Of a DNA stretch of 25,977 bases, positions 1 to 25,977 are shown one piece after another; the stretch's first letter is position 1, and each line of letters begins with the position of its first letter. The translations under genes were made by a program, and so were the position numbers. The DNA comes from Staphylococcus phage S-CoN_Ph34: the sequence record OR354857.1; one strand, given 5' to 3'. The notes under the pieces are model-generated. The model did no database searches. It worked only from the letters and a program-made list of their open reading frames with translations, and was not told the DNA's origin.

Positions 1-4
1 ACTT

Positions 5-27
5 CACCCCACCCCCACCCAGAAACG
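5..27. repeat. Terminal C-rich motif (CCCCACCCCCACCCAGAAAC), inverted copy near right end; candidate ITR/replication origin
   Basis: Revcomp of 25931-25957 (CGACCCCCACCACCGACCCAGATAC) matches about 16/20 positions. Both lie within ~50 nt of the window ends, as expected for a protein-primed linear genome. Confidence 0.5.
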
Positions 28-145
28 AGAACAGAATTTGAGCACGTAGCGACAAAAATTTTGAGTGAAAGGTCAAACAAAATACATTTAAAAATATGTA
101 ATGGATTATTGATAAAAAGTTTTTCAAAAAAGTTTGCTAAAACTA

Positions 146-174
146 TTGCAAAAAATTCGCACTTATTATATAAT
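146..174 (+). promoter_or_regulatory. Early sigma-A-type promoter (TTGCAA-17 nt-TATAAT) reading inward from left terminus
   Basis: -35 TTGCAA at 146-151, 17-nt spacer, -10 TATAAT at 169-174. Conserved counterpart TTGCAA-17-TATATT in right arm at 25832-25860. Confidence 0.55.
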
Positions 175-204
175 GTAATCAAGTTAGAAATGGAGGTGAG
201 AAAA

Positions 205-477
205 GTGACACCAGAAAAAGGTCAAGCCTATACGGAAATGTTACAACTGTTTAATTTATTACAACAATGGAATGATTTTTACACATCAGAAAATGCAAGT
301 AATTTATTAGTTGCATGTCAACAATTATTAATTAATTACAATGACCCAGTCATTAAATTTATTAATGATGAAAATGAAGATAAATCACTACTAAGCTATT
401 TAGCAGGTGATGACGGATTATCACAATGGCAATTTTACAAAGGTTTTTATAATAATTACAACGTTCATATTTTTTAA
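205..477 (+). CDS. Hypothetical early protein (~90 aa); GTG start after GGAGGTG, alternative ATG at 190
   Basis: ORF 61-477 tail. Right-arm paralogue 25530-25802 aligns from VTPEKGQAYTEM / VSEEKAQGYTEM. SD GGAGGTG 192-198. Confidence 0.6.
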   Translation: MTPEKGQAYTEMLQLFNLLQQWNDFYTSENASNLLVACQQLLINYNDPVIKFINDENEDKSLLSYLAGDDGLSQWQFYKGFYNNYNVHIF

Positions 478-524
478 AATAACATTTAATACTATATTCT
501 AAAAATATAATGTGAGGTGAACAT

Positions 525-740
525 ATGAACTACATTGATGTTGAAATCAAAGGTTTTACAGTCTATGCAAAAAATGATAGACATGAAGAATATGACTTTT
601 TTATTCCAAAACAAGATTACAGAATAACTAAACGTGAAATATTACAACATATTCCAGAAGGACATACATTACTAGATAGCAAACGTACGTCAAAAATAAT
701 TACAGTAAGTTATGATGAATTATTAAAAATTGAAATTTAA
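525..740 (+). CDS. Hypothetical early protein (71 aa)
   Basis: ORF with SD GAGGTGA 6 nt upstream of ATG. Paralogue 25299-25514 (~70% identity). Confidence 0.65.
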   Translation: MNYIDVEIKGFTVYAKNDRHEEYDFFIPKQDYRITKREILQHIPEGHTLLDSKRTSKIITVSYDELLKIEI

Positions 741-754
741 AGGAGTTAATAAAA

Positions 755-1195
755 ATGGCAAATGTAAATGAATTATTAAACAAATATTCTAACGGTGGCG
801 CAAAATTTGAATACGACAATGAAAAAGAAAGAGAATATATCAAATTAGGTGAATTGGATATGTCAAAAACATACCCTATTGAAGCGTTATTCATCAATAC
901 GAAAGGTAAATTTGGTGACCAAGGTGTCATCATTAGTGGTGACTACATTGTCAACTTACCTAATCACTTAACAGAAATGATTGAAGAAATGCGACAAGAT
1001 AGTGAAATGGTTGACGCAATCAATCAACGTTTATTTGATTTTGAAATTTATGAATTTGAATCTAAGAAATATAATCGTGTATCACATAGTATTAATTTAG
1101 TACCAAGTGAAAAAGCAAAACAAGAGGTTGAACCTGAGCAACGTAACCCGTTATATAGTGAGCCTGAACCTGAATCTGAAAAAAGTAGTATATGA
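755..1195 (+). CDS. Putative single-stranded DNA-binding protein (acidic C-terminal region); annotated stop probably not the biological C-terminus
   Basis: SD AAAGGAG upstream. Paralogue 24878-25282. +1 frame downstream encodes the canonical SSB C-terminal tip ..PIDISDEDLPF*. Confidence 0.5.
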   Translation: MANVNELLNKYSNGGAKFEYDNEKEREYIKLGELDMSKTYPIEALFINTKGKFGDQGVIISGDYIVNLPNHLTEMIEEMRQDSEMVDAINQRLFDFEIYEFESKKYNRVSHSINLVPSEKAKQEVEPEQRNPLYSEPEPESEKSSI

Positions 1196-1262
1196 GCGAC
1201 GTAACCCGTTCGCTCGTTCTACTAAACCAATTGATATTAGTGATGAAGATTTACCATTTTAA
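1179..1262 (+). other. +1-frame extension encoding SSB-type acidic C-terminal tip (ERRNPFARSTKPIDISDEDLPF*), reached through A6 run at 1179-1184
   Basis: Read directly in the +1 frame. Same arrangement in right arm (A7 run, ..GPIEITDDDLPF*). DDD(I/L)PF is the conserved bacterial SSB C-terminal tip. Confidence 0.55.
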
Positions 1263-1275
1263 TAAAAACTGAATA

Positions 1276-1300
1276 AAGGGGGCAATGCCTCCTTTTTTAT
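1276..1300 (+). terminator. Rho-independent terminator after SSB gene
   Basis: GGGGG-caatg-CCTCC hairpin followed by TTTTTT. Counterpart hairpin GAGGGG-ttttat-CCCCTC on - strand at 24781-24806. Confidence 0.5.
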
Positions 1301-1315
1301 TATGGAGTGATAAAA

Positions 1316-1525
1316 ATGTTAGCGTTTGAAAAAAGTATTATTGATGTATTAGAAAAAGCCTATGCTATGAATAAAGGATTTGTTGTGCTTTGTCAAAGAA
1401 GTAAAAAATATTTAAGTCGTACACTAAAATTTCTTGATGATATTAAATGTGAGTATATAACAATTACTGATAAAGACGGTACTATTAATATTGTGATTGA
1501 TGTTAATTCTTATAAAGGGGTTTAG
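1316..1525 (+). CDS. Hypothetical protein (69 aa), left-arm specific
   Basis: ORF with GGAG 8 nt upstream of ATG 1316. No paralogue at the equivalent right-arm position. Confidence 0.5.
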   Translation: MLAFEKSIIDVLEKAYAMNKGFVVLCQRSKKYLSRTLKFLDDIKCEYITITDKDGTINIVIDVNSYKGV

Positions 1526-1528
1526 TTT

Positions 1529-1774
1529 ATGTTTGGTACAATTGTTACAATAGGATTATGTTTATATGGTATAATTGCATTAATACTTGTTTCAATCGTT
1601 AATTATAAAAGGAGCGATTACATGAATTTGATTAAAGCGTATTATAATATTGTTAATGCACTCAATGATTACGATTTAACAAAAGAACAAAGAGATAAAT
1701 TAGAAAATGCTTTATTTGAAATTACGCATATTCTTAATGATTTAGAAAGTGAGGGAAAATATTTTGATAATTAA
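1529..1774 (+). CDS. Small membrane protein (N-terminal TM helix + helical C-terminal domain); possible phi29 p16.7-like membrane anchor
   Basis: MFGTIVTIGLCLYGIIALILVSIV hydrophobic segment. Right-arm paralogue is frameshifted (24524-24764). Confidence 0.5.
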   Translation: MFGTIVTIGLCLYGIIALILVSIVNYKRSDYMNLIKAYYNIVNALNDYDLTKEQRDKLENALFEITHILNDLESEGKYFDN

Positions 1775-2294
1775 ACATCAAATGAAATTACATTTAAATG
1801 AATTGGTTGATTGGGCGTGGCGTAATGGTGTAACATCTGAAAAGTTTCACTCAAATAATGGTTCATATGTGATATTTGACCATAGTGCAGTAGTAGAAAC
1901 CTATATTATAAACAAAAATGATTTATTTAATGTTATAGAAGAAATTGAAATCACATTAAATACACCGATTGACTATTTCCTAGAGAAAGATATGTACGGA
2001 AATTATCGTGAACATCAAAATATTGCTATTAAGGATTTATTATTTTTAAATACAACATCAGATATTTGGTTAATTAATGATGATGATTCACATATATTGA
2101 TTTATAAAGACGGACAACTCATTGATGAATATATGTATCATCAATTTGAATATGAAGCTAATCAGAATAAGCATATTTACCCACATAATAAAGCGAGTGG
2201 AACGTACCCACATAAAACAGAACAAGACGTCACACCACCAAAAAACAACCTGATACAAAACCCCTACCACCTGAAGAACATACACCAAAAGTGA
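1749..2294 (+). CDS. N-terminal fragment of two-domain SGNH-hydrolase protein (frame-disrupted around 2215-2245)
   Basis: Collinear with N-terminal half of intact 411-aa right-arm ORF 23314-24549. Downstream part continues in the -1 frame (..TTKKQPDTKPLPPEEHTPKVRTIKTLNGTVM). Confidence 0.6.
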   Translation: MRENILIIKHQMKLHLNELVDWAWRNGVTSEKFHSNNGSYVIFDHSAVVETYIINKNDLFNVIEEIEITLNTPIDYFLEKDMYGNYREHQNIAIKDLLFLNTTSDIWLINDDDSHILIYKDGQLIDEYMYHQFEYEANQNKHIYPHNKASGTYPHKTEQDVTPPKNNLIQNPYHLKNIHQK

Positions 2295-2992
2295 GAACCA
2301 TTAAAACATTAAATGGTACAGTAATGAAAGATTATACACCCGTTTCATCAATACAATATGTTAAATCTGTCGGAATCATTGGTGACAGTGTTGGTAAAGG
2401 TTCTCATGCTTCATATAACTTTGGTGATTATATCAATGAAAAAACAGGTGCAAAAATTCAAAACTTATCAGTAAGCAGTGCTACAATGAGTGAAGTTAAA
2501 GACAATAATATATTAAATCAAGCTAAACAACTTAAAGATAATGAATTAGTGATTATACAGGGTACTGATGATGATTGGTTGTTTAATTCAAATGCAGGTA
2601 TTGAAGTAGGTAATAAACTTACAGATACAAAAACTTATATCGGTGCATTTTATAAGGTTGTAGAAACGGTTAAAGAAAATAACCCAAAAGCTAAAATCGT
2701 TGTGATTACACCAACGAAACAAGCAAAAATTGATGATACAGGAAAAGTTATAAGACGTGATACAGACAAGAATAAAAAAGGTTACACATTAAAAACTTAT
2801 GTTGATTCACAAGTGAAAGCAACTAAAGATTTAGGATTAGCATTATATAATGCTTATGATGATTCATTAATTAATCCTTATGATGAAAAATTTAGACAAT
2901 CGTCTATGAAAGACGGTTTACACCCAACAAAATGGGGTCATGAAATGATGTATTATCGCATTGCAGAAACATATCATAAAAATTTTGATTGA
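2291..2992 (+). CDS. C-terminal fragment: SGNH/GDSL-family hydrolase (esterase) domain
   Basis: GDS block (IIGDSVGKGSHAS), GTDDDW (GxND-like) and DGLHPTKWGH (DGxHP catalytic block). Paralogue is the C-terminal half of 23314-24549. Confidence 0.6.
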   Translation: MRTIKTLNGTVMKDYTPVSSIQYVKSVGIIGDSVGKGSHASYNFGDYINEKTGAKIQNLSVSSATMSEVKDNNILNQAKQLKDNELVIIQGTDDDWLFNSNAGIEVGNKLTDTKTYIGAFYKVVETVKENNPKAKIVVITPTKQAKIDDTGKVIRRDTDKNKKGYTLKTYVDSQVKATKDLGLALYNAYDDSLINPYDEKFRQSSMKDGLHPTKWGHEMMYYRIAETYHKNFD

Positions 2993-3002
2993 GGTGTAGA
3001 CA

Positions 3003-3515
3003 ATGAAAAGAGGTAACAAAAGTAATCGCATTGCACGTTCAAATGCTTTTCGTGAAGCAACAACAAAAAAACAATCAACCTATGAACGTGACGGATTTGT
3101 TTTTTTATTTGATGATGAAGAATTACAAAAAGAATACATTCATGAATATAATCATTTTAACAATCTATTTGTTGAAAAAGGTAAAGTTAAACTACCTAAA
3201 CCAAAAAAGATTGCTTATATTGACGCTAAAAGTTTAGTGAGTGGTAAAAACCAAGAAAAGTTAACAGAAATAGAAAATGTCTATAAACAACTTGATTATG
3301 ATTGGGAACAAAAAGGTAATATGCACAAACGCCATTTATTCCAAGAAGCAGTTAAAGACAATGACGGTTCACAAGAAATATCACACTTTATTAAATCAAC
3401 TCAAGAACTATTTAAAGAACTTGAAGAAGCTACAAAAGTAGATAGTATTGTAAATAAAAACAAGTCAAATACAACGTTGTTTATTATGTCAGACGGGTGG
3501 GTTAACTATGTTTGA
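3003..3515 (+). CDS. Hypothetical basic 170-aa protein immediately upstream of packaging ATPase (function unknown; terminal-protein candidacy is speculation only)
   Basis: ORF; paralogue 22820-23311. Confidence 0.55.
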   Translation: MKRGNKSNRIARSNAFREATTKKQSTYERDGFVFLFDDEELQKEYIHEYNHFNNLFVEKGKVKLPKPKKIAYIDAKSLVSGKNQEKLTEIENVYKQLDYDWEQKGNMHKRHLFQEAVKDNDGSQEISHFIKSTQELFKELEEATKVDSIVNKNKSNTTLFIMSDGWVNYV

Positions 3516-3563
3516 AACTGTTGATGATATTATTGAATATTATTCAGATAAGGAGGTTAAAAA

Positions 3564-4448
3564 ATGAAAAAGTCACGATTAAATGAAGTGAAAGACTATC
3601 AAAATTTTGTTAATAAGTTTAGACGTTCAATTCCAAAACAATATAATCAAATTGAACTTGCAGATGATTTGATGAATTTAGATATTGATTTTTTAATTTC
3701 CATATCCAACCGTTCAGACGGTAAAACATTCAACTATGTTGCATTTTTTATGAAGTTAGCTATTGATTTAGATATTAAGTTTACTTTACTCGCAAGACAT
3801 CATACATTGCGTGACGCTTATCGTGAATTACTTGAAAGAATATGTATTGAACAAAAACATTTTAATGATAAAGATTTATTTTTTAGAAATACGCAAGATT
3901 ATATTGCAGTTGGTTATGGTGATAAAGAAATTGGTATTATTACTCACCTTAATAATGCAACCGATTTAAAATATCATTCTAACTTTATGAAGAATTTTCC
4001 TATCATTATTTATGATGAGTTTTTAGCATTAGAAAGTGACTATCTCATAGATGAGTGGGAAAAGTTGAAAACCATATATGAAAGTATTGACCGTAACCAT
4101 GGTAATATTGAATATATCAAAATACCAAAAATTGTATTACTAGGAAATGCCGTAAACTTTTCAAGTCCACTACTCGCAAACTTAAATATTTATGAACAAT
4201 TACAACATCACTCAAAATTTGGTATGAATAGCAAACGTCAGTATAGTAATATCATGCTTGAGATGAGAAGAAATGAATTTTCTAATGAGAATCGTAACAC
4301 ACGTGCATTTAATACTGATGATGATTCTATGACAACAGGTGAATTTGATTTTAATACATTCAATTTAGCAGACGATTATTTGAGGGCGCACATATCAAGT
4401 AATGGTAACTTTTTCCATATCAAAACCCCTATAATTATATTAAAGTGA
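3564..4448 (+). CDS. DNA encapsidation ATPase (phi29 gp16-like), N-terminal fragment; 1-nt frame disruption near 4431
   Basis: Walker A-like SNRSDGKT and Walker B IIIYDEF. SD AAGGAGG. Intact paralogue 21503-22762 (419 aa). Confidence 0.8.
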   Translation: MKKSRLNEVKDYQNFVNKFRRSIPKQYNQIELADDLMNLDIDFLISISNRSDGKTFNYVAFFMKLAIDLDIKFTLLARHHTLRDAYRELLERICIEQKHFNDKDLFFRNTQDYIAVGYGDKEIGIITHLNNATDLKYHSNFMKNFPIIIYDEFLALESDYLIDEWEKLKTIYESIDRNHGNIEYIKIPKIVLLGNAVNFSSPLLANLNIYEQLQHHSKFGMNSKRQYSNIMLEMRRNEFSNENRNTRAFNTDDDSMTTGEFDFNTFNLADDYLRAHISSNGNFFHIKTPIIILK

Positions 4449-4795
4449 TGTATAACTTAAATGATTATCAAACCAATATTAAAGTTGTGCCCTATTCTGA
4501 TGATTATCATTTTTGCACTGATGTATCAGATGTTGAACATGGTGCATTATTTTTAAAAGAATCATTTTATAAAGATAATCATCAAAGGCGTTATTATAAC
4601 CCCTCAAATCTTCATTTTGATAATGCATACAGTAAATCATTTATACTCAATGAGGACGATTTTATTCATTTAAACATGAACAAGATTATAAAGTATCATT
4701 TAAAAACAGAACGTAACAAAAAAGGGTATCAACCTTTTGAACAAAAAGAAAAAATGTATCATGATAACTACATTGAAAGAACTAAAAAAATCTAG
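4445..4795 (+). CDS. DNA encapsidation ATPase, C-terminal fragment
   Basis: Collinear with C-terminus of 21503-22762. Restoring one nt at CCTAT^AATT gives ..KTPMNYIKVMYNLNDYQ, matching the paralogue. Confidence 0.75.
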   Translation: MMYNLNDYQTNIKVVPYSDDYHFCTDVSDVEHGALFLKESFYKDNHQRRYYNPSNLHFDNAYSKSFILNEDDFIHLNMNKIIKYHLKTERNKKGYQPFEQKEKMYHDNYIERTKKI

Positions 4796-4808
4796 TAAAA
4801 TCATTTAT

Positions 4809-4845
4809 AAGCAATGTGTAAAGTTTTTACATATTGCTTTTTTTA
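4809..4845 (+). terminator. Rho-independent terminator after ATPase gene
   Basis: 13-bp stem AAGCAATGTGTAA / TTACATATTGCTT (1 mismatch), loop AGTTTT, then T7. Confidence 0.5.
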
Positions 4846-4854
4846 TGATATAAT
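4826..4854 (+). promoter_or_regulatory. Putative extended -10 promoter (TGaTATAAT) for DNA polymerase gene
   Basis: TGATATAAT at 4846-4854, 25 nt upstream of pol ATG. TATAAT also present upstream of right-arm pol'. Confidence 0.35.
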
Positions 4855-4878
4855 GTTTTTTGATTAGAGGTGTAGAAC

Positions 4879-5478
4879 ATGGGATTATTAGAAGCAATGC
4901 AAAAACATAAAGGTCAAAAAAATTTATATCTTTATTGGGATATTGAAACATTAAACTATAATAAGGTAGCAGGAAGAGAAAAACCAACTAAATATAAAAA
5001 TGTTACTTATAGTCTTGCTATTGGTTGGTATGATGGAAAACACATTGATGTTGAAGTATTTCCAAGTTTTAAATCCTTTTATCAATCTTTTTTTGATTAC
5101 GCCTCAAGACGTGATACGATTACGAAATCACAAACTACCATTAATATGATTGCACATAACTGTAATAAATACGATAATCATTTTTTACTTCACGATACAA
5201 AATATTATTTTGGTGATGATTTAGTGATAGAAAATTTATTTATGAAAAGTGCAGAAGATAACGAAAATACAATTAATATGAATGAAGCAAAATTATTATC
5301 AAAAGAAACAAATGTGATTTTAGAAAAACGTGTTAAATCAAGTATTAATTTAGATTTAATAATGTATTTGAAAGGATTTAAGTTTAATATCATTGATAAT
5401 TTTATGAAAACCAATACATCAATAGCAACACTAGGAAAAAACTCAAAGACGGTGGGTATATTAGTGAAGATGAATTAA
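4879..5478 (+). CDS. Protein-primed family-B DNA polymerase, N-terminal (exonuclease) fragment; frame lost in A6 run 5436-5441
   Basis: Exo I YWDIETLN, Exo II HNCNKYDNHF. SD AGAGGTG. Right paralogue has A7 at the same place and is intact (761 aa). Confidence 0.9.
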   Translation: MGLLEAMQKHKGQKNLYLYWDIETLNYNKVAGREKPTKYKNVTYSLAIGWYDGKHIDVEVFPSFKSFYQSFFDYASRRDTITKSQTTINMIAHNCNKYDNHFLLHDTKYYFGDDLVIENLFMKSAEDNENTINMNEAKLLSKETNVILEKRVKSSINLDLIMYLKGFKFNIIDNFMKTNTSIATLGKNSKTVGILVKMN

Positions 5479-5498
5479 AAACTGATTTTCAATATGAT

Positions 5499-7172
5499 GT
5501 GTTTGATGTTGAACATGATATGACAGATAAACAAGCGTATGCTTATGCTTATGAATGTTTTCATCAACTTACAGAATCACAAATGACCTATATTAGAAAC
5601 GATGTCATCATATTAGGTATGTGCCACATACATTATAGTGATATATTCCCTAATTTTGATTATAGTGCAATGACCTTTAGTGTAAATATTATGAAAAGTT
5701 ATATCAATAATGAAACAACACGATTACAATTATTAAACCAAAAAGGAAAGCAAAAAATATCATACACAGATTTTACTTTTTTTGATATGAATTTTTATGA
5801 CTTTATTAAGGGTTTCTATCGTGGTGGATTAAATATGTATAATTCACGTTATGTTGATAAAATCATCAATGAGGAATGTTTTTCAATAGACATTAATAGT
5901 AGTTATCCCTATGTGATGTATCATGAAAAATTACCAATGTATATTTATGATTTTGGTGAATATGAACAACCGACAACGATACACATTGATTTAACTAATA
6001 AAGATTATTTTTCCCTTTATAAAATGGATAAAGTCACATTCAATCGTACTATTTTAAGAAATATTGAAAGTGATTTAATTAAACAATGTCTTGTTAAATA
6101 CTACAATAATGATAAAAAGTTTGTTAACATAAATACAAACACTTTACGCATGATTCAAGATTTAACGGGTTTAACTTTTGATAAAATAAATGTGTTTGCT
6201 TTTGTATGCTATGAATGTGAATACTTTGGCGCTCGTGATATTATTCATCATAATTATTTTATTAAAACACAGGGTAAATTAAATAAAAAAATCATTATGG
6301 ATTCACCCTATAACTATAAAATTACTGATGAAGTGAATACACATACCTATTCACAAGAAGAAATTATGTTAAGTAAAGTTGTTTTAAATGGTCTGTATGG
6401 TATACCTGCTTTACGGTCACATTTTAATTTGTTTAGACGTGATGAGGACGGTTTTTTAGTTAACCATGAAAATGGATATAAAAACAGTGAACGCAATTTG
6501 TTGTTTTCAACTTTTGTTACATCACAAGCACTTTATAACTTACTTGAACCCCTAAAGTCTCTAACACAATCTGAAATTGATGAATGTTTTATTTATTGTG
6601 ATACAGACAGTTTATATTTGAAATCAAAAATTAAACATAAAATCAATGATGAATTATTTGACCCAATCGCATTAGGTAAGTGGGACATTGAAAATCACGT
6701 TATTAAAAAAATGTATGTACTCAATCATAAAAAGTACGCCTACCAAAAAGAAGATAATACAATTAAAATAGCAAGTGCAGGTATTCCATTAGACGCATTT
6801 AATAAAAATCAATCTTTTGAAGAATTTATAAAGAATGATTTTCACCATAAAGCAATTGTGTATAACAATAAATCCATTTATAACGAACAAAAAACAATAT
6901 CTATTTACCCGTCAAAAACATATATTGAAAAAGGTACACCTTATGATTATTATTTCACTAAAGAATTAGAGGATAGAAAAGAAGATGTATTAAAACAAGC
7001 AAGACGTGAATATGATGATGTTAATGACGATGATATATTATACATTGAGAGTGAAGTCGGCGCATTTTCATTTAGTGACTTATTTCCTTATCAATTTGAA
7101 ATTAAAAATAAATGTGATATTAACATTTTATATATGGTTCATCAAGACATAAAAAATGACGCTACATTATAG
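5499..7172 (+). CDS. Protein-primed family-B DNA polymerase, C-terminal (polymerisation) fragment
   Basis: Exo III YIRNDVIIL, motif A DINSSYPYVM, motif B KVVLNGLYG, motif C YCDTDSLY, KxY KKYAY. Confidence 0.95.
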   Translation: MFDVEHDMTDKQAYAYAYECFHQLTESQMTYIRNDVIILGMCHIHYSDIFPNFDYSAMTFSVNIMKSYINNETTRLQLLNQKGKQKISYTDFTFFDMNFYDFIKGFYRGGLNMYNSRYVDKIINEECFSIDINSSYPYVMYHEKLPMYIYDFGEYEQPTTIHIDLTNKDYFSLYKMDKVTFNRTILRNIESDLIKQCLVKYYNNDKKFVNINTNTLRMIQDLTGLTFDKINVFAFVCYECEYFGARDIIHHNYFIKTQGKLNKKIIMDSPYNYKITDEVNTHTYSQEEIMLSKVVLNGLYGIPALRSHFNLFRRDEDGFLVNHENGYKNSERNLLFSTFVTSQALYNLLEPLKSLTQSEIDECFIYCDTDSLYLKSKIKHKINDELFDPIALGKWDIENHVIKKMYVLNHKKYAYQKEDNTIKIASAGIPLDAFNKNQSFEEFIKNDFHHKAIVYNNKSIYNEQKTISIYPSKTYIEKGTPYDYYFTKELEDRKEDVLKQARREYDDVNDDDILYIESEVGAFSFSDLFPYQFEIKNKCDINILYMVHQDIKNDATL

Positions 7173-7186
7173 TAGCGTCTTTTTTT
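7158..7186. terminator. Bidirectional terminator between convergent pol and lysis genes
   Basis: Perfect 8-bp stem GACGCTAC/GTAGCGTC flanked by A6 and T7. Pol stop codon lies inside the structure. Confidence 0.6.
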
Positions 7187-7281
7187 ACGAGGTATAGTGA
7201 CAAGTGACGTTTGCCATACGGATTATGTTTTGTTGTTTATTTACTAGAATGTTCTAGCATACTTATATTATAGCATAATTT

Positions 7282-7919: not shown

Positions 7920-7921
7920 AT

Positions 7922-17481: not shown

Positions 17482-17662
17482 TATTGACCAAATTTTAAAT
17501 TTAAATAGTGGATTACTTATGATTACTATTTTTTACTATATTGCGAATGAAGGTCTTTCAATTGTTGAAAACTGTGCAGAAATGGGTATTTTAATTCCTG
17601 ATGAAATAGGTGAAAAATTAAAAGTAATCCGAAATAATGATAAGGGTGATAAACATGAATGA
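17426..17662 (+). pseudogene. Truncated holin copy (lacks N-terminal ~58 aa including TM1); overlaps MCP start antisense
   Basis: MYGFGRKILVFCIIILANIIDQ.. aligns with residues 59-140 of holin 8694-9116. Confidence 0.7.
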
Positions 17663-18425: not shown

Positions 18426-18427
18426 AT

Positions 18428-19059
18428 ATGAACGCTAAACTATTAGATGAAATGCGTGATTTAATGAATAGCATTGACGGGGGAGTGGTAAAGATACGGG
18501 TGCAGATGATAACGATAAACATTCAGGTGGTAAATCTGTAGCACCTAACGGAAAAAGTGGGCGTGTCATTGGTGGTAACTGGACATATGAAACCTTACCG
18601 AAAAAATATAAAGATGCTATTGATGTACCTTTATTTAAAAGAAGTTATTTGAATAATAGCGGGAATACATTCCCTAGGTTTGGTAATACAGGACAATGTA
18701 CCGAATTAACACAATGTTATATGACACAACTACATGGAAAAGTCCAACCTGCCGACGACGGACAGATTACCAACGGTCAGAGAGTATGGGTAGTCTATCA
18801 TAATAGAGGTGCACGAATTACTCACCGTCCTACCGTAGGTTATGGATTCAGTAGTAAACCCCCTTATTTACAGGCGGCGTTACCAGGTGTTGGTCATACG
18901 GGGGTTGTGGTTGCTGTATTTGATGATGGATCATTCTTAACTGCAAACTTTAACGTTCCACCGTACTGGGCTCCTAGTCGTGTTGTTGAATATGCTTTAA
19001 TTGACGGTGTACCTAAAAATGCAGGGGATAATATCATGTTTTTTAGTGGTATAAAATAA
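18428..19059 (+). CDS. CHAP-domain peptidase paralogue (frame-disrupted at G5 run 18479-18483)
   Basis: MNAKLLDEMRDLMNSIDGG then, with +1 G, SGKDTGADD..GRVIGGNWTYETLPKKYKDAIDVPLFKRSYLNNSGNTFPRFGNTGQCTE.. Catalytic Cys/His in 18649-19059. Confidence 0.7.
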
Positions 19060-19157
19060 ATTTTATGCTATAATTAAAGTATGTTAGGAAACTAGCAAAT
19101 AAAATAACAAAACATAATCCGTATGAGGTGCAACAAACCTCACTACACCTTAAAAAA

Positions 19158-19190
19158 AACGCAACTTATTCATTTAAGTTGCGTTTTTTA
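19158..19190. terminator. Bidirectional terminator between CHAP' and pol'
   Basis: 10-bp stem AACGCAACTT/AAGTTGCGTT flanked by A8 and T6. Pol' stop inside stem. Confidence 0.6.
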
Positions 19191-21459
19191 TATCTTGATG
19201 AACCATATACAGAATATTTATATCACATTTGTTTTTAATTTTAAATGTGTAGGGAAATAAATCACTTAATGAAAATGCACCGACATCACTTTCAATATAT
19301 AAAATATCATCATCATTCACATCATCATATTCTTGACGTGCTTGTTTTAATATTTCATTCTTGCGATGTTCTAATTGGTTCGTGAAATAAAAATCATACG
19401 GTGAACCTTTTTCTATATATGTTTTTGAGGGGTATATAGAAATGGTTCTTTGTTCATTATATATTGATTTGTTGTTATATACAATAGCTTTATGATGAAA
19501 ATCGTTTTTAATAAAATCTTTAAAAATTTGATTTGTATTAAAAGCGTTTAATGGTATGCCTGCACTTGCTATTTTAATTGTATCATCTTCTTTTTGGTAA
19601 GCGTACTTTTTATGATTGAGTACATACATTTGTTTAATCACATCGTTTTCTATATCCCACTTTCCTAATGCAATTGGATCGAATAGATGAGGGTTTAACT
19701 TGTGTTTGATTTTTGACTTTAAATATAAACTGTCCGTATCGCAATATATAAAACATTCATCTATTTCAGATTGGGTTAATGATTGCAACGGTTCAAGTAG
19801 ATTATAAAGGGCTTGTGATGTAACAAAAGTAGAAAATAATAAATTGCGTTCACTGTTTTTATATCCATTCACATGATTGATTAAAAAATCATCTTCATCA
19901 CGTCTGAACAAATTAAAATGTGAACGTAATGCAGGAATGCCATATAAACCATTTAAAACAACCTTACTTAACATAATTTCTTCATTTGAATAGGTATGTG
20001 TATTCACTTCATCAGTGATTGTGTAATCATAGGGTGAATTCATAATGATTTTTTTGTTTAATTTACCTTGTGTTTTAATGAAATAATTATCATGTATAAT
20101 ATCACGAGCACCAAAATACTCACATTCATATTGCACATATGCAAACACTTGTAAGGTGTCAAAAGTTAAACCCGTAATATCTTGAATCATGCGTAAAGTG
20201 TTTGTATTTATATTAACAAACTTTTTATCATTATTGTAGTATTTAACTAAACATTGTTTAATAATATCACTTTCAATATAACGTAATACCTTTTTATTGA
20301 ATGTTACTTTATCAACTTTATACAAACTGAAAAAATCTTTATTATCTAATTCAATATTAATTGTTGTAGGTGCTTCAAATTCACCAAAATCATGGATATA
20401 CATCGGTATCTTTTCTTTATACATCACATAAGGGTAACTTGAATTAATATCAATTGAAAAACATTCATCACGAATGATTTGATCGACGTATCTTGAATTA
20501 TACATATTTAAACCACCACGATAGAAACCCTTAATGAAGTCATAATAATTCATATCAAAAAATGTAAAATCCGTGTAGGATATTTTTTGTTTACCTTTTT
20601 GATTAAGTAGTTGAAACCGTGTTTGTTCACTATTAATATAACTATTCATAATATTAACGCTAAATGTCATCGCATTATAATCAAAATTAGGGAATATATC
20701 AGAATAATGGATATGTGATTGACCTAGAATAATAACATCATTACGAATATAAGTCATTTGTTCATCATTCAGTTTTAAAAAACACTGATACGCATATTCA
20801 TAGGCTTGTTGGTCTGTCATATCATGTTCAACATCGAATATTTCATAATCAAAATCAGTTTTTAACTGGTCATCTGTTAAATATCCCCCGTCTTTGAGTT
20901 TTTTTCCTAATGTAGCGATTGATGTGTTGGTTTTCATAAAATTATCTATAATATTAAATTTAAAACCATTTAAAAACATAAGTAAATCTAAATTAATACT
21001 TGATTTGACACGTTTTTCAAGTATCACATTTTTTTCTTTTGCGAGTAGCTTTGCTTCATTGATATTTATGGCATTGCTATTATCGTCTGCACTTTTCATG
21101 TATAAATTTTCTATTTCTACATCATCTAAATGTTGAATTAAATCATGTAGTAAGAAATGATTATCATATTTATTACAGTTATGTGCGATCATTGTAATGG
21201 TTGTCTTTGATTTTGTGATTGTGTCACGGCGTTTTGCGTATGTGAAAAAGGTATCAAAAAACACTTTAAAACTTGGGAATACTTCAACATCTATCACGCC
21301 GTTATTATTCCAACCAATCGCAACACTGTAAGTTACATTTTTATATTTCGTTGGTTTTTCTCTACCTGCTACTTTATTATAATTTAATGTTTCAATATCC
21401 CAATATAATATTAAATCTTTTTGACCTTTATTCACTTTCATAGCGTCCAATAATCCCAT
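19174..21459 (-). CDS. Protein-primed family-B DNA polymerase (intact, 761 aa)
   Basis: All exonuclease and polymerase motifs as listed for the left copy. SD TGAGGTG. Confidence 0.95.
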   Translation of the reverse strand: MGLLDAMKVNKGQKDLILYWDIETLNYNKVAGREKPTKYKNVTYSVAIGWNNNGVIDVEVFPSFKVFFDTFFTYAKRRDTITKSKTTITMIAHNCNKYDNHFLLHDLIQHLDDVEIENLYMKSADDNSNAININEAKLLAKEKNVILEKRVKSSINLDLLMFLNGFKFNIIDNFMKTNTSIATLGKKLKDGGYLTDDQLKTDFDYEIFDVEHDMTDQQAYEYAYQCFLKLNDEQMTYIRNDVIILGQSHIHYSDIFPNFDYNAMTFSVNIMNSYINSEQTRFQLLNQKGKQKISYTDFTFFDMNYYDFIKGFYRGGLNMYNSRYVDQIIRDECFSIDINSSYPYVMYKEKIPMYIHDFGEFEAPTTINIELDNKDFFSLYKVDKVTFNKKVLRYIESDIIKQCLVKYYNNDKKFVNINTNTLRMIQDITGLTFDTLQVFAYVQYECEYFGARDIIHDNYFIKTQGKLNKKIIMNSPYDYTITDEVNTHTYSNEEIMLSKVVLNGLYGIPALRSHFNLFRRDEDDFLINHVNGYKNSERNLLFSTFVTSQALYNLLEPLQSLTQSEIDECFIYCDTDSLYLKSKIKHKLNPHLFDPIALGKWDIENDVIKQMYVLNHKKYAYQKEDDTIKIASAGIPLNAFNTNQIFKDFIKNDFHHKAIVYNNKSIYNEQRTISIYPSKTYIEKGSPYDFYFTNQLEHRKNEILKQARQEYDDVNDDDILYIESDVGAFSLSDLFPYTFKIKNKCDINILYMVHQDIKNAT

Positions 21460-21502
21460 AGTCTACACCTCAATCACCTATATTATAGCATAAGCAAAAA
21501 CT

Positions 21503-22762
21503 TTACGCATTAAATATAAATGATTTTTCAAGATATTTTTTAGTTCTCTCTATATAGTTATCTTGAAACATTTTTTCTTGACGATTAAAGTGGTTATAAC
21601 CGTTTTTCTTACGTTCATTTTTTAAATGATACATGATGATTTTGTTCATATTTAAATAGATATATTGTTCTTCATTTAATATAAATGATTTACTATAAGC
21701 ATTATCAAAATGTAAGTTGCTAGGGTTATAGTAGCGTTTGGGGTGGTTTTCTTTATAAAATGAATCTTTTAAAAATATTGCATTTTTTTCTACATCACTA
21801 ACATCGGTACAAAATTGATAATTATCAGAATAGGGTACGACTTTAATATTCGTTTGATAATCACCTAAATGATACATCACTTTAATAAAATTCATTGGGG
21901 TTTTAATATAGAAAAAGTTACCGTTTTTATTGATATGTTTTCTTAAACCGTCATCTGCTAAATTAAAGGTATTAAAATCAAATTCACCCGTTGTCATACT
22001 ATCTTCTTTTGAATTAAAAGCACGGGTATTTCTTTTTTCGTTTGAATACTCATTACGTCGCATTTCTAAAAGTATATTATTATATTCCCGTTTCTGGTTC
22101 ATGGCATGTTTTGAATGATGTTGGAGTTGTTCATATATATTTAAATTCGCGAGTAGGGGACTAGAAAAGTTTACGGCATTACCTAATAAAAAGATTTTAG
22201 GTATTTTCAAATAATCAATATTACCGTGGTTTCGGTCAATACTTTCATAAATGGTTTTTAACTTTTCCCACTCGTCAATCAAATAGTCACTTTCTAATGC
22301 TAAAAACTCATCATATATAATAATAGGGAAGTTTTTCATAAAGTTTGAATGATATTTTAAATCAGTTGCATTATTGAGATGTGTTATGATACCAATTTCT
22401 TTTTCACCATAACCTACTGCAATATAATCTTGTGTGTTTCTAAAAAATAAGTTATGATCATTAAAATGTTTTTGTTCAATACAAATACGTTCTAATAATT
22501 CACGGTACGCATCACGCAATGTATGGTGTCTTGCGAGTAATGTAAATTTTATATTAAATTCAATCGCTAATTTCATAAAAAACGCAATATAGTTGAATGT
22601 TTTACCGTCAGAACGGTTTGAAATAGATATGTAGAAATCAAGTTCTGTATTCATCAAATGGTCAACAAGTTCAATCTGGTTATATTGTTCAGGTATGGAT
22701 TTTCTAAACTTAGTAACAAAGTTTTGAAATTCCTTAATTTCTGTCATTCTTGATTTTTTCAC
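21503..22762 (-). CDS. DNA encapsidation ATPase (intact, 419 aa from GTG start)
   Basis: Walker A/B motifs. GTG start after AAAGGTGA aligns with left-copy MKKSRLNEV. Confidence 0.85.
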   Translation of the reverse strand: MKKSRMTEIKEFQNFVTKFRKSIPEQYNQIELVDHLMNTELDFYISISNRSDGKTFNYIAFFMKLAIEFNIKFTLLARHHTLRDAYRELLERICIEQKHFNDHNLFFRNTQDYIAVGYGEKEIGIITHLNNATDLKYHSNFMKNFPIIIYDEFLALESDYLIDEWEKLKTIYESIDRNHGNIDYLKIPKIFLLGNAVNFSSPLLANLNIYEQLQHHSKHAMNQKREYNNILLEMRRNEYSNEKRNTRAFNSKEDSMTTGEFDFNTFNLADDGLRKHINKNGNFFYIKTPMNFIKVMYHLGDYQTNIKVVPYSDNYQFCTDVSDVEKNAIFLKDSFYKENHPKRYYNPSNLHFDNAYSKSFILNEEQYIYLNMNKIIMYHLKNERKKNGYNHFNRQEKMFQDNYIERTKKYLEKSFIFNA

Positions 22763-22819
22763 TTTTATCACCTTTTTTCTGGTAATGATTAATAATATCT
22801 TGAACGGTTTCAAACATTA

Positions 22820-23311
22820 TTATTTTACCTTTCTTGTGTAGAACACAATGTTATAATTCACTTTTCTTTGATTTTCTATATCGTTGACTTTTGTTGCGTC
22901 AGCAAGTTCATCAAATAAAGCATTTGCCGATTTAATAAAATGTGACATTTCTTGTGACCCGTCATTGTCTTTCACTGCTTCTTGGAATAAATGACGTTTG
23001 TGCATGTTCCCTTTTTGTTCCCAATCATAATCCAGTTGCTTATATATATTTTCAATATGTGTGAGTTCTTTTTGGTTTTTACCACTCACTAAACTTTTAG
23101 CGTCTATATACGTCACTTTTTTAGGTTTAGGTAGGGACACTTTACCTTTAGAAACAAACGTTTGATTGAAGTGGTTATATTCATTAATGTATTCTTTTTG
23201 TAATGCTTCATCATCAAAAAGAAAAACAAACCCATCACGTTGATAGGTTGTCTTGTTTTTCGTTGTTGTATTTCTAAACGCATTAGATCGTGATATTTTA
23301 TTGTTTTTCAT
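22820..23311 (-). CDS. Hypothetical basic 163-aa protein (paralogue of 3003-3515)
   Basis: ORF; about 75% identical to left copy. Confidence 0.55.
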   Translation of the reverse strand: MKNNKISRSNAFRNTTTKNKTTYQRDGFVFLFDDEALQKEYINEYNHFNQTFVSKGKVSLPKPKKVTYIDAKSLVSGKNQKELTHIENIYKQLDYDWEQKGNMHKRHLFQEAVKDNDGSQEMSHFIKSANALFDELADATKVNDIENQRKVNYNIVFYTRKVK

Positions 23312-23313
23312 AC

Positions 23314-24549
23314 TTATACACCCTCATCAAAAAATTCATAGTATTGTTGGATTAACTTATAATAAATCATTTCGTGTCCCCACTTCGTAGGGTGTAAACC
23401 GTCTTTCATAGACGAGTGTCTAAACGATTCATCATAAGGTTTAATTAAAGGGTCGGTATACGCATTATATAACGCCACGTTTAAACGTTTCGCTTCACTT
23501 ACTTGTGCAGTTACGTAATCATTTAATGATAAACCTTTTTTATTTTTATCTGTATCGCGACGAATGACCTCACCACTCGCATTAACTTTTGCTTGTTTCG
23601 TTGGTGTCATCACAATGATTTTTACATCTTTGTTTTGTTGTCTAATATTAGTAATGATTTCTTTCATTGCCCCGATATACGTATCATTTTTAGAATCATG
23701 TTGACCGATTTCTACACCGTCACCCTTTAACCAATCATCATCAGTACCTTGTACAATCACTAAATCTTTATTTTTGATTTGTTTTGATTGGTTAATCATA
23801 TTATTGTCTGAATTTGTTGAATAGGTTGCACTACTTTCTGCAACATTTTCAACATTAATATTGAGTTTCTCTCTAAACATATCGCCAAAGTTTTGTGATG
23901 CGTGTGACCCTTTAGCAACACTATCACCAATAATACCAATACTTTTAATATTTCTTATTGATGAAATAGGGGTGTAATCTTGCATAACTGTTCCGTTTAA
24001 CGTCTTAACTGTTTTTACAGTCGGAATTTTTTTATTGTCAGGTTGTTTTTTATTTTTATCTGGTTTTGTTTGAGATTGTTCACCACCTGGATATGACCCA
24101 CTTGCACGTTTAATATCATATACTTTTTTATTTTGGTTTGCTTCATATTCAAACGTTTTATATTGATATTGGTCTATAAGTTTACCGTCTTTATAAATCA
24201 ATATATGTGAATCATCATCATTAATTAACCAAATATCTGATGTTGTATTTAAAAATAATAAATCCTTAATCGCTATATTTTGATGTTCACGATAATTGTT
24301 ATAAATATCTTTTTCTAAAAAGTGAGAAATAGGGGAATCCATTGTAATCTCAATTTCATCTTCAATATTAAATAAATCATTTTTATTAATAATATATGTT
24401 TTCGTTACTGCACCATTATCAAAAATAACATAAGACCCGTTATTACTTGAATACTTTTTATTTTTAATATCGTGTTTCCAAACATATTCAACTAATTCAT
24501 TTAAGTGTAACTTTAACTGATGTTTAATTATCAAAGTATTTTCCCTCAC
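23314..24549 (-). CDS. Two-domain protein with C-terminal SGNH/GDSL hydrolase (esterase) domain, intact 411 aa
   Basis: GDSVAKGSHAS, QGTDDDW, DGLHPTKWGH. N-terminal ~190 aa domain of unknown function. Confidence 0.6.
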   Translation of the reverse strand: MRENTLIIKHQLKLHLNELVEYVWKHDIKNKKYSSNNGSYVIFDNGAVTKTYIINKNDLFNIEDEIEITMDSPISHFLEKDIYNNYREHQNIAIKDLLFLNTTSDIWLINDDDSHILIYKDGKLIDQYQYKTFEYEANQNKKVYDIKRASGSYPGGEQSQTKPDKNKKQPDNKKIPTVKTVKTLNGTVMQDYTPISSIRNIKSIGIIGDSVAKGSHASQNFGDMFREKLNINVENVAESSATYSTNSDNNMINQSKQIKNKDLVIVQGTDDDWLKGDGVEIGQHDSKNDTYIGAMKEIITNIRQQNKDVKIIVMTPTKQAKVNASGEVIRRDTDKNKKGLSLNDYVTAQVSEAKRLNVALYNAYTDPLIKPYDESFRHSSMKDGLHPTKWGHEMIYYKLIQQYYEFFDEGV

Positions 24550-24764
24550 TTTCTAAATCATTGAGAATATCCGTAATATCATCAAGTGCATTTTCTAATG
24601 CTAAATTTTGTTCTTCTGTTAAATCGTATTCATTTAACGCGTTTACAATTAAATAGTATGCCTTAATCAATTTCAATCTTATCTACTCCATTCACTAATG
24701 AAACTAATGTTATTGACATTATACCATAGAATATTAAAAACGATGTGACGATAACCCCAAACAT
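24524..24764 (-). pseudogene. Small membrane protein paralogue, frame-disrupted (33-aa TM fragment 24663-24764 + out-of-frame remainder)
   Basis: MFGVIVTSFLIFYGIMSITLVSLVNGVDKIEID* then +1 frame LIKAYYLIVNALNEYDLTEEQNLALENALDDITDILNDLESEGKYFDN*, both matching 1529-1774. Confidence 0.55.
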
Positions 24765-24780
24765 ATATAGACCTCCTCAT

Positions 24781-24806
24781 AATAAAGAGGGGATAAAACC
24801 CCTCTA
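24781..24806 (-). terminator. Rho-independent terminator after SSB' gene
   Basis: GAGGGG-ttttat-CCCCTC followed by TTTATT on - strand. Confidence 0.5.
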
Positions 24807-24819
24807 TTTAAATTTTTAT

Positions 24820-24904
24820 TTAAAATGGTAAATCATCATCAGTAATTTCAATTGGCCCATTAGCACGATCGAACGGGTTACGTCGCTCGTTTTCTACTTT
24901 TTTT
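24820..24904 (-). other. +1-frame extension encoding SSB-type tip (ENERRNPFDRANGPIEITDDDLPF*) after A7 run (T7 at 24898-24904 on + strand)
   Basis: Read directly; mirrors the left-arm arrangement. Confidence 0.55.
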
Positions 24905-25282
24905 GCTATCTACCTCAACATTATCACTTGCTACAATATTGATTGATACAGATGTACGATTGTATTTTTTAGATGTAAATTCATAAATTTCAAACGCAAG
25001 TTCACGATTGTTAATAGCTTCTGTGACTTCATTATCTGAACGCATTTCCTCAATCATTTCTGTTAAATGGTTAGGTAGATTAACAAAGTAGTTTTCAATG
25101 ACAATAACCCCTTGATTACCAAATTTTCCTTTTGTGTTGATAAATAATGCTTCAATTGTATATTTTTTATCTTGTGGTAATTCTGCTAATTTAATGAAAT
25201 CACGTTCTTTTTCATTATCGTAATCATATTGTGGTGATCCACCATTTGAATATTTGTTTAAAATGTTATTTAAGTTTGTCAT
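24878..25282 (-). CDS. Putative SSB paralogue (134 aa in annotated frame)
   Basis: Collinear with 755-1195. Annotated frame ends ..SKKSRKRAT* inside the conserved GAGCGACGTAACCCGTTCG motif. Confidence 0.5.
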   Translation of the reverse strand: MTNLNNILNKYSNGGSPQYDYDNEKERDFIKLAELPQDKKYTIEALFINTKGKFGNQGVIVIENYFVNLPNHLTEMIEEMRSDNEVTEAINNRELAFEIYEFTSKKYNRTSVSINIVASDNVEVDSKKSRKRAT

Positions 25283-25298
25283 TTTTGTTTTCTCCTTT

Positions 25299-25514
25299 TT
25301 ATTTAGAAATTTTTAATAGTTCATCATAATTAACTGTAATTGTTTTCTTTGAACGTTTTGAATCAATTAATGTATGTGATTCTGGAATATGTTTCATCAT
25401 TTCAGTTTTTGAAATTCTGTAATCTTGCTTAGGGATAAAAAAGTCATATTTTTCACCAACATCATTATGACAATAAAGGGTGAATCCTTTAATATCTAAA
25501 TCAATATAATTCAA
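25299..25514 (-). CDS. Hypothetical early protein (71 aa), paralogue of 525-740
   Basis: ORF; conserved. Confidence 0.65.
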   Translation of the reverse strand: MNYIDLDIKGFTLYCHNDVGEKYDFFIPKQDYRISKTEMMKHIPESHTLIDSKRSKKTITVNYDELLKISK

Positions 25515-25529
25515 GTGACCACCTCCATA

Positions 25530-25802
25530 CTAAAATATGTGTACATCGTAATTTTGGTAAAAACCTTTATAAAAATTCCATTGTTCTAATCCGTCATCAC
25601 CTGCTAAATATTTAAGCAATGATTTGTTTTCTGTCTCGTCATTTAAAAATTGAATCACTTGGTCGTTATAATTAATTAAAAGTTGTTGACATGCAACTAA
25701 CATAGTATCTGCATTTTCTGATTTAAAATAATCATTCCATTTTTTCAATTCATTAAATAAACTTAACATTTCCGTATAGCCTTGTGCTTTTTCTTCACTC
25801 AC
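25530..25802 (-). CDS. Hypothetical early protein (~90 aa), paralogue of 205-477
   Basis: GTG start after AGGAGGTG. Shared LVACQQLLINYND and YLAGDDGL blocks. Confidence 0.6.
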   Translation of the reverse strand: MSEEKAQGYTEMLSLFNELKKWNDYFKSENADTMLVACQQLLINYNDQVIQFLNDETENKSLLKYLAGDDGLEQWNFYKGFYQNYDVHIF

Positions 25803-25831
25803 TTTTAACACCTCCTTGATTTGTTATATCT

Positions 25832-25860
25832 AATATATCATGTGCGTAAAAACTTTGCAA
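25832..25860 (-). promoter_or_regulatory. Early sigma-A-type promoter (TTGCAA-17-TATATT) reading inward from right terminus
   Basis: Revcomp contains TTGCAA, 17-nt spacer, TATATT. Counterpart of 146-174. Confidence 0.5.
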
Positions 25861-25910
25861 TAGTTTTATGAAAATTGTTGAGTAAATTTTACACCTTTAA
25901 AAATAATTTT

Positions 25911-25931
25911 ATCGCCAACGGCGATTTTTTG
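25911..25931 (+). other. Perfect hairpin ATCGCC-aac-GGCGAT followed by T6, just inside right terminal motif
   Basis: Seen directly. No equivalent hairpin at left end. Confidence 0.4.
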
Positions 25932-25957
25932 GTATCTGGGTCGGTGGTGGGGGTCGA
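25931..25957. repeat. Right terminal C-rich motif (inverted copy of 5-27)
   Basis: GGGTCGGTGGTGGGGGTCG on + strand is the revcomp of CGACCCCCACCACCGACCC. A further ~24 nt (..AATATTACAAAAAAAATTC) lies outside it and has no left-end match. Confidence 0.5.
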
Positions 25958-25977
25958 AAATATTACAAAAAAAATTC

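Follow-up and report, generated by a model that had tools for sequence, protein, structure and literature searches.

The window analysed here is the whole of the sequence deposited for Staphylococcus phage S-CoN_Ph34 (OR354857.1), 25,977 bp long with a GC content of 30%, and is listed with these same values in Table S2 of the study that produced it (PMC11001980). Its most conspicuous feature is a pair of inverted copies, spanning ~1–8945 and 17426–25977, which are 73–85% identical across ungapped blocks and have one structural block between them. An inverted-repeat search joined ~190–8945 to 17426–25815 through 29 collinear inverted pairs, among them 5436–7200 with 19140–20904 (1765 nt, 83%) and 3560–4432 with 21894–22766 (873 nt, 81%), and pairs this long are not explicable by chance. 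The search bears out the inverted two-arm architecture described in the initial annotation, which was also right to read the right arm as another 'left end', contributed by a related phage and joined in inverted orientation, and to note that the window has no natural right end, the part expected upstream of the major capsid protein (MCP) gene. Its framing of the window as a real molecule is unsupported.

Positions 1–17409 (plus strand) make up a nearly complete Andhravirus of the S-CoN_Ph33 type (OR354856.1; Andhravirus, Rountreeviridae; 18,246 bp), which starts ~24 nt in from the left terminus, ends in the major capsid gene at codon 14 and contains the left (early/replication) arm together with the entire late structural/lysis block. 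By BLAST, window positions 3–17409 match OR354856.1 positions 16–17426 at 99.83% identity, with 3 mismatches and 19 gap openings, and nearly all of the 29 differing columns are homopolymer or short-repeat indels, the one clean substitution lying at 6182. Within Nanopore indel error this is the same genome as Ph33, with the left inverted terminal repeat (ITR), the early/replication arm, the lysis genes and, as far as MCP codon 14, the structural block in common, whereas Ph33 positions 17427–18246 (MCP codons 1–13, two small virion genes and the right ITR) are absent from the window. The two records also differ in their homopolymer frameshifts, with the SGNH and polymerase genes broken in the window and the RBP and head fiber genes broken in the Ph33 record. 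A single-A deletion in an A7 run at 2240 (plus strand) splits the gene for the SGNH/RBP-anchor hydrolase into 1749–2294 and 2291–2992, a gene that is unbroken both in Ph33 (1796–3007) and in the right arm (23314–24549, 411 aa). Another at 5436, likewise in an A7 run on the plus strand, splits the left-arm DNA polymerase gene into 4879–5478 and 5499–7172, and this gene too is unbroken in Ph33 (4894–7188). We read both deletions as sequencing errors.

The remainder of the window, 17410–25977 (minus strand), is the left ~8.57 kb of a second Andhravirus, of the S-CoN_Ph36 type (OR354859.1), in inverted orientation, with the order mid-holin, tail-tip lysin, DNA polymerase, packaging ATPase, terminal protein, SGNH hydrolase, early genes and left terminus. 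Positions 17410–24092 match OR354859.1 positions 10748–17426 at 99.93% (BLAST), differ in 5 columns (4 homopolymer indels and 1 substitution) and represent the same genome, with terminal-repeat sequence in common. The last stretch, 24093–25977, reaches beyond the truncated Ph36 record, which lacks its left ~1.9 kb. Pfam and PHROGs confirm in the right arm a GDSL/SGNH hydrolase (23314–24549), a packaging ATPase or 'terminase' (21503–22813), a type-B protein-primed DNA polymerase (19174–21459) and a CHAP-domain lysin (17637–18425 plus 18649–19059), all as initially proposed; the SSB that had been named with them is assigned by position, and both it and the terminal protein are placed solely by matching positions to the annotated St 134 reference. 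What had been taken for separate 'amidase' and 'CHAP' ORFs are instead two pieces, N-terminal and C-terminal, of a single tail-tip lysin of ~475 aa that frameshifts have broken. At its inner edge the segment begins with a 5′-truncated fragment of the Ph36 holin gene (17410–17662, plus strand), cut at codon 53 of 136. The match to Pfam Phage_holin_4_1 accordingly spans only profile positions 45–116 of 116, the listed holin ORF (17426–17662) begins at an internal Met (residue 59), and the intact Ph36 coding sequence occupies 10590–11000 of its own record.

Comparing each arm separately with known genomes, a check that the initial annotation had itself suggested, was decisive, as the arms match two different ~18-kb Andhravirus genomes, Ph33 and Ph36, at >99.8%, with differences of the Nanopore indel type. 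Matches along the whole window are to Andhravirus genomes (77–99.9%), and each segment has the same gene set and order as canonical Andhravirus/P68-like phages (St 134, KY471386; Andhra, NC_047813), with which it shares a protein-primed type-B polymerase, a terminal protein, a packaging ATPase, short ITRs and a GC content of ~28–30%. These canonical genomes are 17–19 kb long, have a single left arm and carry MCP, capsid-lining protein, inner-core protein and ITR at the right end, whereas the window has 26 kb, two left arms and no right end. A complete genome of this genus is expected to be an ~18-kb linear molecule with matching ITRs and one early/replication arm; the window is 25,977 bp long, its ends do not match, it carries two replication arms, and it lacks the 820-bp right end with the capsid-lining protein, a portal-proximal core protein and the right ITR. 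At least 20 related records contain >80% of this 820-bp stretch. Ph34, despite the lack of it in the window, was propagated as a plaque-forming phage (PMC11001980). The Andhravirus and other podophage records among the matches listed are 16.9–19.2 kb long with a single left arm, among 96 related phage records not one spans ≥80% of the window, and the symmetric two-arm layout was not seen in any relative compared.

These comparisons bear directly on the suggestion that the window represents a genuine novel lineage of Rountreeviridae, with ~8.5-kb diverged inverted terminal arms and two paralogous replication/lysis modules. The architecture itself would fit such a lineage, as would the status of the record, submitted as a complete genome and with a CheckV completeness of 100% (PMC11001980). 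However, each arm is ≥99.8% identical to a different one-armed 18-kb phage, two genes are truncated where the segments meet, conserved right-end genes are missing, and relatives do not have the layout. Overall arm-to-arm identity is ~77%, and Ph33 and Ph36 are 77–80% identical to each other across the structural block. Since the arms diverge to the same extent as the two source phages do across their genomes, they are orthologous regions of two phages and not paralogues. We therefore reject a lineage with long paralogous arms, which is scarcely credible on these figures, and most likely there is no new genome architecture here.

At the outer ends, positions 4–124 (plus strand) are the left ITR of a Ph33-type genome, identical at 100% to Ph33 positions 18219–18099. 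The Ph33 ITR occupies 17–137 and 18099–18219 of its record, its right-end partner is not in the window, and the true Ph33-type terminus starts ~24 nt further out (AAATATTAAGGAA...GGTACTTCACC). Positions 25873–25947 (minus strand) form the left terminal repeat of a Ph36-type genome, 96% identical to the right-end terminal sequence at Ph36 positions 1447–1523. With a Ph33 ITR at the left and a Ph36 terminal repeat at the right, the outer ends are the left termini of two different phages, and local alignment found only weak similarity between them, such that they are not repeats of each other. A promoter scan placed sigma-70-like hexamers at 146–174 (TTGCAA-17-TATAAT, plus strand) and 25860–25832 (TTGCAA-17-TATATT, minus strand). 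The inward early promoters initially proposed for both ends thus have homologous hexamers, but promoter-like hits overall were not above those in shuffled sequences; the homologous −35/−10-like sites are consistent with early promoters and are not evidence in themselves.

Two genuine left termini, each with terminal-repeat sequence, would provide two usable protein-priming origins, which is what one would expect of a natural strand-switch (copy-choice) recombinant or defective genome arising from co-infection by Ph33- and Ph36-type phages. Along this route, a protein-primed polymerase copying Ph33 from its left end would jump at Ph33 position 17426 to a Ph36 strand and run back to the Ph36 left terminus, yielding a 26-kb product that would have replication origins at both ends, could replicate and would need a helper for capsid functions. 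Strand-displacing polymerases of the phi29 type do generate inverted chimeras by template switching in vitro, and the presence of both parental sequences at consensus quality is compatible with a mixed lysate. Andhravirus capsids, however, package an 18-kb genome, of which 26 kb is ~143%, the capsid-lining and inner-core genes are absent, the MCP N-terminus is corrupted, and an assembly dominated by a rare by-product would be surprising. A snap-back of a single parent fits no better, given that the arms come from two phages at 73–85% identity instead of being near-identical copies and that no bases are shared at the point of switching. Overall, we consider a natural recombinant of this kind very unlikely.

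The junction itself lies at exactly 17409|17410, not within 17426–17481 where it had first been placed, and links position 17426 of the Ph33 record to position 10748 of the Ph36 record, one inverted relative to the other. A base-by-base three-way comparison shows it to be blunt, with zero shared and zero inserted bases, and the BLAST matches abut exactly. The breakpoint is functionally arbitrary and interrupts two genes, at MCP codon 14 and Ph36 holin codon 53. Translation comparison shows that the resulting 416-aa hybrid major-capsid ORF (16231–17481, minus strand) takes its residues 25–416 from Ph33 MCP residues 14–405 and its first 24 residues from the Ph36 holin fragment read in antisense; MADKKKDIPTLIA, the native MCP N-terminus, is missing, and the Pfam Phi29_MCP match begins at residue 28. 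Neither microhomology nor local similarity, sought as a cause of either a repeat-graph misjoin or a template switch, was found at 17409|17410, and there is no recombination signal (0 nt microhomology). This weighs against strand switching, as template switching usually uses a few bases. A 36-nt string spanning the junction had no exact match in IMG/VR viral contigs, GTDB genome contigs or JGI metagenome contigs, so that the join has no independent support in these three collections, and the hybrid MCP ORF is not on record in the assemblies index. Together with the phage records compared, these searches leave the junction absent elsewhere in the public data searched, which also argues against a natural recombinant.

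The study that produced the record (PMC11001980) used a MinION R9.4.1 with the Native Barcoding and Ligation kits, Guppy 4.5.4 for basecalling and Flye 2.9.2 as sole assembler, and applied no short-read polishing. A literature search for the accession turned up no paper that discusses it. ONT native-barcode flanks and adapters were sought around the junction, the two window ends and the centre of a fold-back in the Ph36 record, and none was found. The absence of any such remnant requires either a physical join, formed in vitro or in vivo, or a join made in silico, and leaves a pair of molecules read back-to-back, that is, 'two reads not split', unsupported. The same search returned a single chance 7-8-mer at 7841.

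Taking these observations together, we estimate a probability of roughly 0.9 that the window is no genome but a chimeric contig, misassembled from two staphylococcal phages, in strong support of what the initial annotation had listed as one of three options. The read set would have held two ordinary ~18-kb protein-primed Andhraviruses, indistinguishable from S-CoN_Ph33 and S-CoN_Ph36, that were mixed either physically, in a mixed lysate, or only in the data, through cross-talk between barcodes or carry-over in a Nanopore run on pooled, native-barcoded libraries. We infer that the link was made by fragment-to-fragment ligation during library preparation, in which one or a few chimeric reads would have connected a Ph33 fragment ending 820 bp from the right terminus to a Ph36 fragment that began inside the holin gene in the opposite orientation. 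Flye would then have taken up this link and extended it both ways to the natural left terminus of each phage, so that two diverged 'left arms' ended up in one 26-kb sequence. Long-read ligation chimeras are likewise blunt, at unrelated positions, in arbitrary orientation and without microhomology, and a benchmark of ONT ligation libraries reported 3.17% chimeric reads (PMC8495745). The high consensus quality of both segments indicates that the read set was rich in both phages, as would also be expected from a real mixed infection.

The same artefact could have arisen with no chimeric molecule at all, if the error-tolerant Flye repeat graph had tangled two ~77–80% identical genomes and an arbitrary path through it had been output. 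Two related genomes in one read set and a single assembler would favour such an event, as would the acceptance of Flye output without end curation that the sister records show. A repeat-graph switch would be expected at homologous positions in the same orientation, however, whereas here MCP codon 14 is joined to holin codon 53 in opposite orientation and without local similarity. A purely in-silico misjoin is highly improbable on these grounds, and is in any case a sub-variant of a chimeric contig, the sequence being an artefact either way.

Sister records from the same ligation, native-barcoding and Flye pipeline contain comparable joins. Positions 1–1446 of the Ph36 record are a 100% reverse complement of its positions 1628–3073, joined at the right terminus; positions 18309–19197 of the Ph31 record are a 100% reverse complement of its positions 3243–4131, joined just past the left terminus; and the last ~974 bp in the record of Ph9, a Sextaecvirus of 89.8 kb, are from an Andhravirus right end. 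All three appear to be spurious inverted or foreign terminal segments, similar to over-extension by an assembler at linear genome ends. Had the Ph9 tail been identical to DNA of some other S-CoN phage in the deposited set, bleed between samples would have been proven, but its best match is only 89% (Ph35), and its source is thus an undeposited Andhravirus. The analogy is inexact, as these artefacts are tails of ~1 kb at genome termini, while 17409|17410 is internal to both parents and joins two phages over many kilobases. One might instead regard the contig as a real, abundant 26-kb helper-dependent genome formed by strand switching and the inverted joins in Ph36 and Ph31 as products of the same template switching rather than artefacts. 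Replication biology cannot explain the inter-genus join of Sextaecvirus and Andhravirus in this same dataset, and we regard this extended version as very unlikely too.

If strand switching had nonetheless occurred, the window would document a rare natural inter-phage inverted recombinant in a protein-primed phage. Read as a chimeric contig, its importance is mainly one of data hygiene: a public record that carries the label 'complete genome' and a completeness rating of 100% is apparently a chimera of two phages, and it should be flagged along with at least three siblings (Ph36, Ph31 and Ph9), four database records in all. Such records can distort Rountreeviridae taxonomy, genome-size statistics, analyses of ITRs and termini, and inferences about gene content or 'paralogues'. 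The window also supplies, at 24093–25977, the left ~1.9 kb that the S-CoN_Ph36 record lacks, which allows a genome of canonical size, about 17.9 kb, to be reconstructed for that phage.

Our analysis strongly supports the reading of the window as a chimeric contig and not a real biological feature. This was one of three possibilities raised in the initial annotation, and all features of a chimeric contig that could be tested were found. None of 50,697 phage records searched by megablast covers at least 80% of the window. In direct BLAST comparisons, window 3–17409 corresponds to positions 16–17426 of Staphylococcus phage S-CoN_Ph33 (OR354856.1, 18,246 bp) at 99.83% identity, while window 17410–24092 corresponds to positions 10748–17426 of S-CoN_Ph36 (OR354859.1) at 99.93%, and the two matches adjoin with neither gap nor overlap. 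Compared column by column, the window differs from Ph33 at 29 positions and from Ph36 at 5; nearly all of these differences are one-base indels in homopolymers or short repeats, and each comparison has one clean substitution. Judged from these alignments, one half is the Ph33 genome and the other the Ph36 genome, within sequencing error, and each is an ordinary member of Andhravirus (Rountreeviridae, Rakietenvirinae).

The long diverged inverted duplication described earlier is itself present. An inverted-repeat search of the window returned 29 collinear inverted pairs joining ∼190–8945 to 17426–25815, the longest of 1765 nt (83% identity) and 873 nt (81%), with block identities of 73–85% overall. 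The ORF layout and GC skew mirror the duplication, with genes on the plus strand to ∼7200, on the minus strand at 7280–17480, on the plus strand at 17426–19060 and on the minus strand thence to the end. In the right arm, Pfam and PHROGs identify a GDSL/SGNH hydrolase, a phi29-type packaging ATPase, a type-B protein-primed polymerase, a CHAP lysin and a holin fragment; SSB and terminal protein were assigned by position from the curated annotation of the Andhravirus reference St 134 (KY471386). When each arm was compared separately with known genomes, two different phages were matched, Ph33 at 99.8% and Ph36 at 99.9%. The suggestion that the arms are paralogous modules did not hold: Ph36 is 77–80% identical to the structural block of the window (2301–17391), the same level as that seen from arm to arm, so the arms are best regarded as orthologues from two phages, and their divergence, on this comparison, as simply the distance that separates two phage species. 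The second possibility raised, that of a true lineage with paralogous arms, is refuted by this identity level together with the Ph33 and Ph36 matches. GC content rises to 0.36–0.40 at 7000–9000, 12000–13500 and 17500–19000 against a background of 0.27–0.30; these stretches cover the receptor-binding protein gene and, in each arm, the tail-tip lysin, and may be host-derived or horizontally exchanged modules.

The switch from Ph33 to Ph36 at 17409|17410 is clean, with no shared and no inserted bases. Ph33 sequence breaks off within the major capsid protein (MCP) gene, at codon 14, and the 416-aa ORF across the junction is a hybrid: residues 1–24 come from antisense reading of the Ph36 holin, residues 25–416 are Ph33 MCP residues 14–405, and the Pfam MCP match begins at residue 28. 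Because the junction lies in phase 0 of the MCP frame and an upstream ATG is supplied by Ph36-derived sequence, the MCP ORF looks intact and the break would go unflagged by gene callers. The Ph36 holin, of 136 codons, is broken at codon 53, and what is left of its ORF covers only profile positions 45–116 of 116. No ONT adapter or barcode motifs were present at the junction.

As the initial annotation had noticed, the natural right end upstream of the MCP gene is gone: the window lacks Ph33 17427–18246, which holds MCP codons 1–13, two small genes (the capsid-lining protein and portal-proximal core protein of the St 134 annotation) and the right inverted terminal repeat (ITR). More than 80% of this segment is found in at least 20 related records, including Andhra, St 134, BESEP3, Pike and JBug18. 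The inference of two left-type termini was also correct, with the Ph33 left ITR located by BLAST at window 4–124, short of ∼24 nt of the true terminus (AAATATTAAGGAA...GGTACTTCACC), and the Ph36 terminal repeat located by sequence match at 25873–25947. The outer ends of the window, when compared, are not repeats of each other. As a whole, therefore, the window differs from a complete Andhravirus genome in size, in lacking matching ITRs and the conserved right end, and in having more than a single early arm. Within the Ph36-type terminal repeat, at 25911–25925, a GC-rich hairpin with a 6-bp stem, ATCGCCGTTGGCGAT, is followed by a T-run. The Ph36 right end carries this hairpin as well, and the Ph33 ITR contains no equivalent; the hairpin is a candidate terminator or origin element.

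Could the window nevertheless be a real molecule? A strand-switch recombinant between the two phages would possess two usable origins, which leaves it a formal chance, but it would have arisen at a junction without microhomology, would reach ∼143% of the packaged genome size and would have lost its native MCP start together with two conserved virion genes. No independent sequence supports the junction among IMG/VR viral, GTDB genome and JGI metagenome contigs, nor does the hybrid MCP find support in the assemblies index. We consider such a recombinant very improbable, and the reading of the window as a real molecule is not supported.

The source study lists S-CoN_Ph34 (OR354857) at 25,977 bp and 30% GC in its Table S2, with an Andhra query coverage of only 74.7%, compared to 90–100% for seven of eight Andhravirus siblings and 68.7% for Ph36; its genomes were sequenced on MinION R9.4.1 using the Native Barcoding and Ligation Sequencing Kits and Guppy 4.5.4, and assembled with Flye 2.9.2 without short-read polishing (PMC11001980). 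An independent benchmark reported 3.17% chimeric reads in ligation-based ONT libraries (PMC8495745). Sister records also carry spurious joins. In Ph36, 1–1446 is a 100% reverse complement of 1628–3073, and the 181 nt between the copies open with the terminal repeat, reading inward, which indicates that an internal fragment was joined, inverted, to the right terminus; this "complete genome" record lacks the left ∼1.9 kb. In Ph31 (OR354854.1, 19,197 bp), 18309–19197 is a 100% reverse complement of 3243–4131, and this 889-bp copy of lower collar/RBP genes sits directly beyond the left terminus, making the record ∼900 bp longer than its relatives. Finally, the last ∼974 bp of Ph9 (OR354832.1, an 89.8-kb Sextaecvirus; 88857–89830) is an Andhravirus right end, ordered ITR, inner-core and capsid-lining genes, MCP start. 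On sequence grounds the Ph9 record is an inter-genus chimera. The tail is 86% identical to Ph33 and its best match, Ph35, reaches only 89%, so its source is an Andhravirus relative outside the deposited genomes. Since replication cannot join unrelated genera, artificial joins, in vitro or in silico, entered the S-CoN assemblies. The 88–104 kb size range of the Ph9 cluster (PMC11001980) suggests that other members (Ph11–13) may carry additions.

For the window, the most likely course is that the Ph34 read set contained both Ph33-type and Ph36-type genomes, owing either to a mixed lysate or to bleed between barcodes, and that a chimeric read tied Ph33 17426 to Ph36 10748 in opposite orientation. 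Flye would then have taken this link and extended outward until reads ended at the natural left terminus of each phage. The short right end of Ph33, like the right half of Ph36, would have been omitted or assigned to another contig. It is less likely that the assembler made a pure repeat-graph misjoin, as the join links non-homologous positions in opposite orientation.

Several broken genes bear on consensus quality. In the window, A7-to-A6 errors split the SGNH gene, through a deletion at 2240, and the left polymerase, through one at 5436; the three-piece polymerase of the Ph36 record results from T-run deletions that the window lacks. The packaging ATPase is split at 4427 into ORFs 3564–4448 and 4445–4795 by the loss of one nucleotide compared with St 134 (CAAAAC-CCC versus CAAAACACCC); the same split is annotated in Ph33, while a single ORF encodes the protein in the right arm (436 aa) and in St 134 (419 aa). 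The probable cause is a systematic Nanopore error common to the window and Ph33 assemblies, though a real frameshift in the Ph33-type phage could also produce the split. Three ORFs at 9126–10890 (minus strand) represent the tail knob gene, which encodes 588 aa in St 134, the tail-tip lysin (∼475 aa, PHROG 5979) is interrupted in each arm (7282–8701, minus; 17637–19059, plus), and indel differences from Ph33 cluster at 7581–8248, indicating that the consensus is locally poor.

The practical value of the analysis is that four problematic public records are flagged and the Ph36 left end is recovered: Ph36 1447–17426 plus window 24093–25977 reconstructs a canonical genome of ∼17,865 bp. For the Ph36-type left ∼1.9 kb, with its early genes and left terminus, no sequence is available apart from this window segment, which shares only ∼70% identity with the left end of Ph33.
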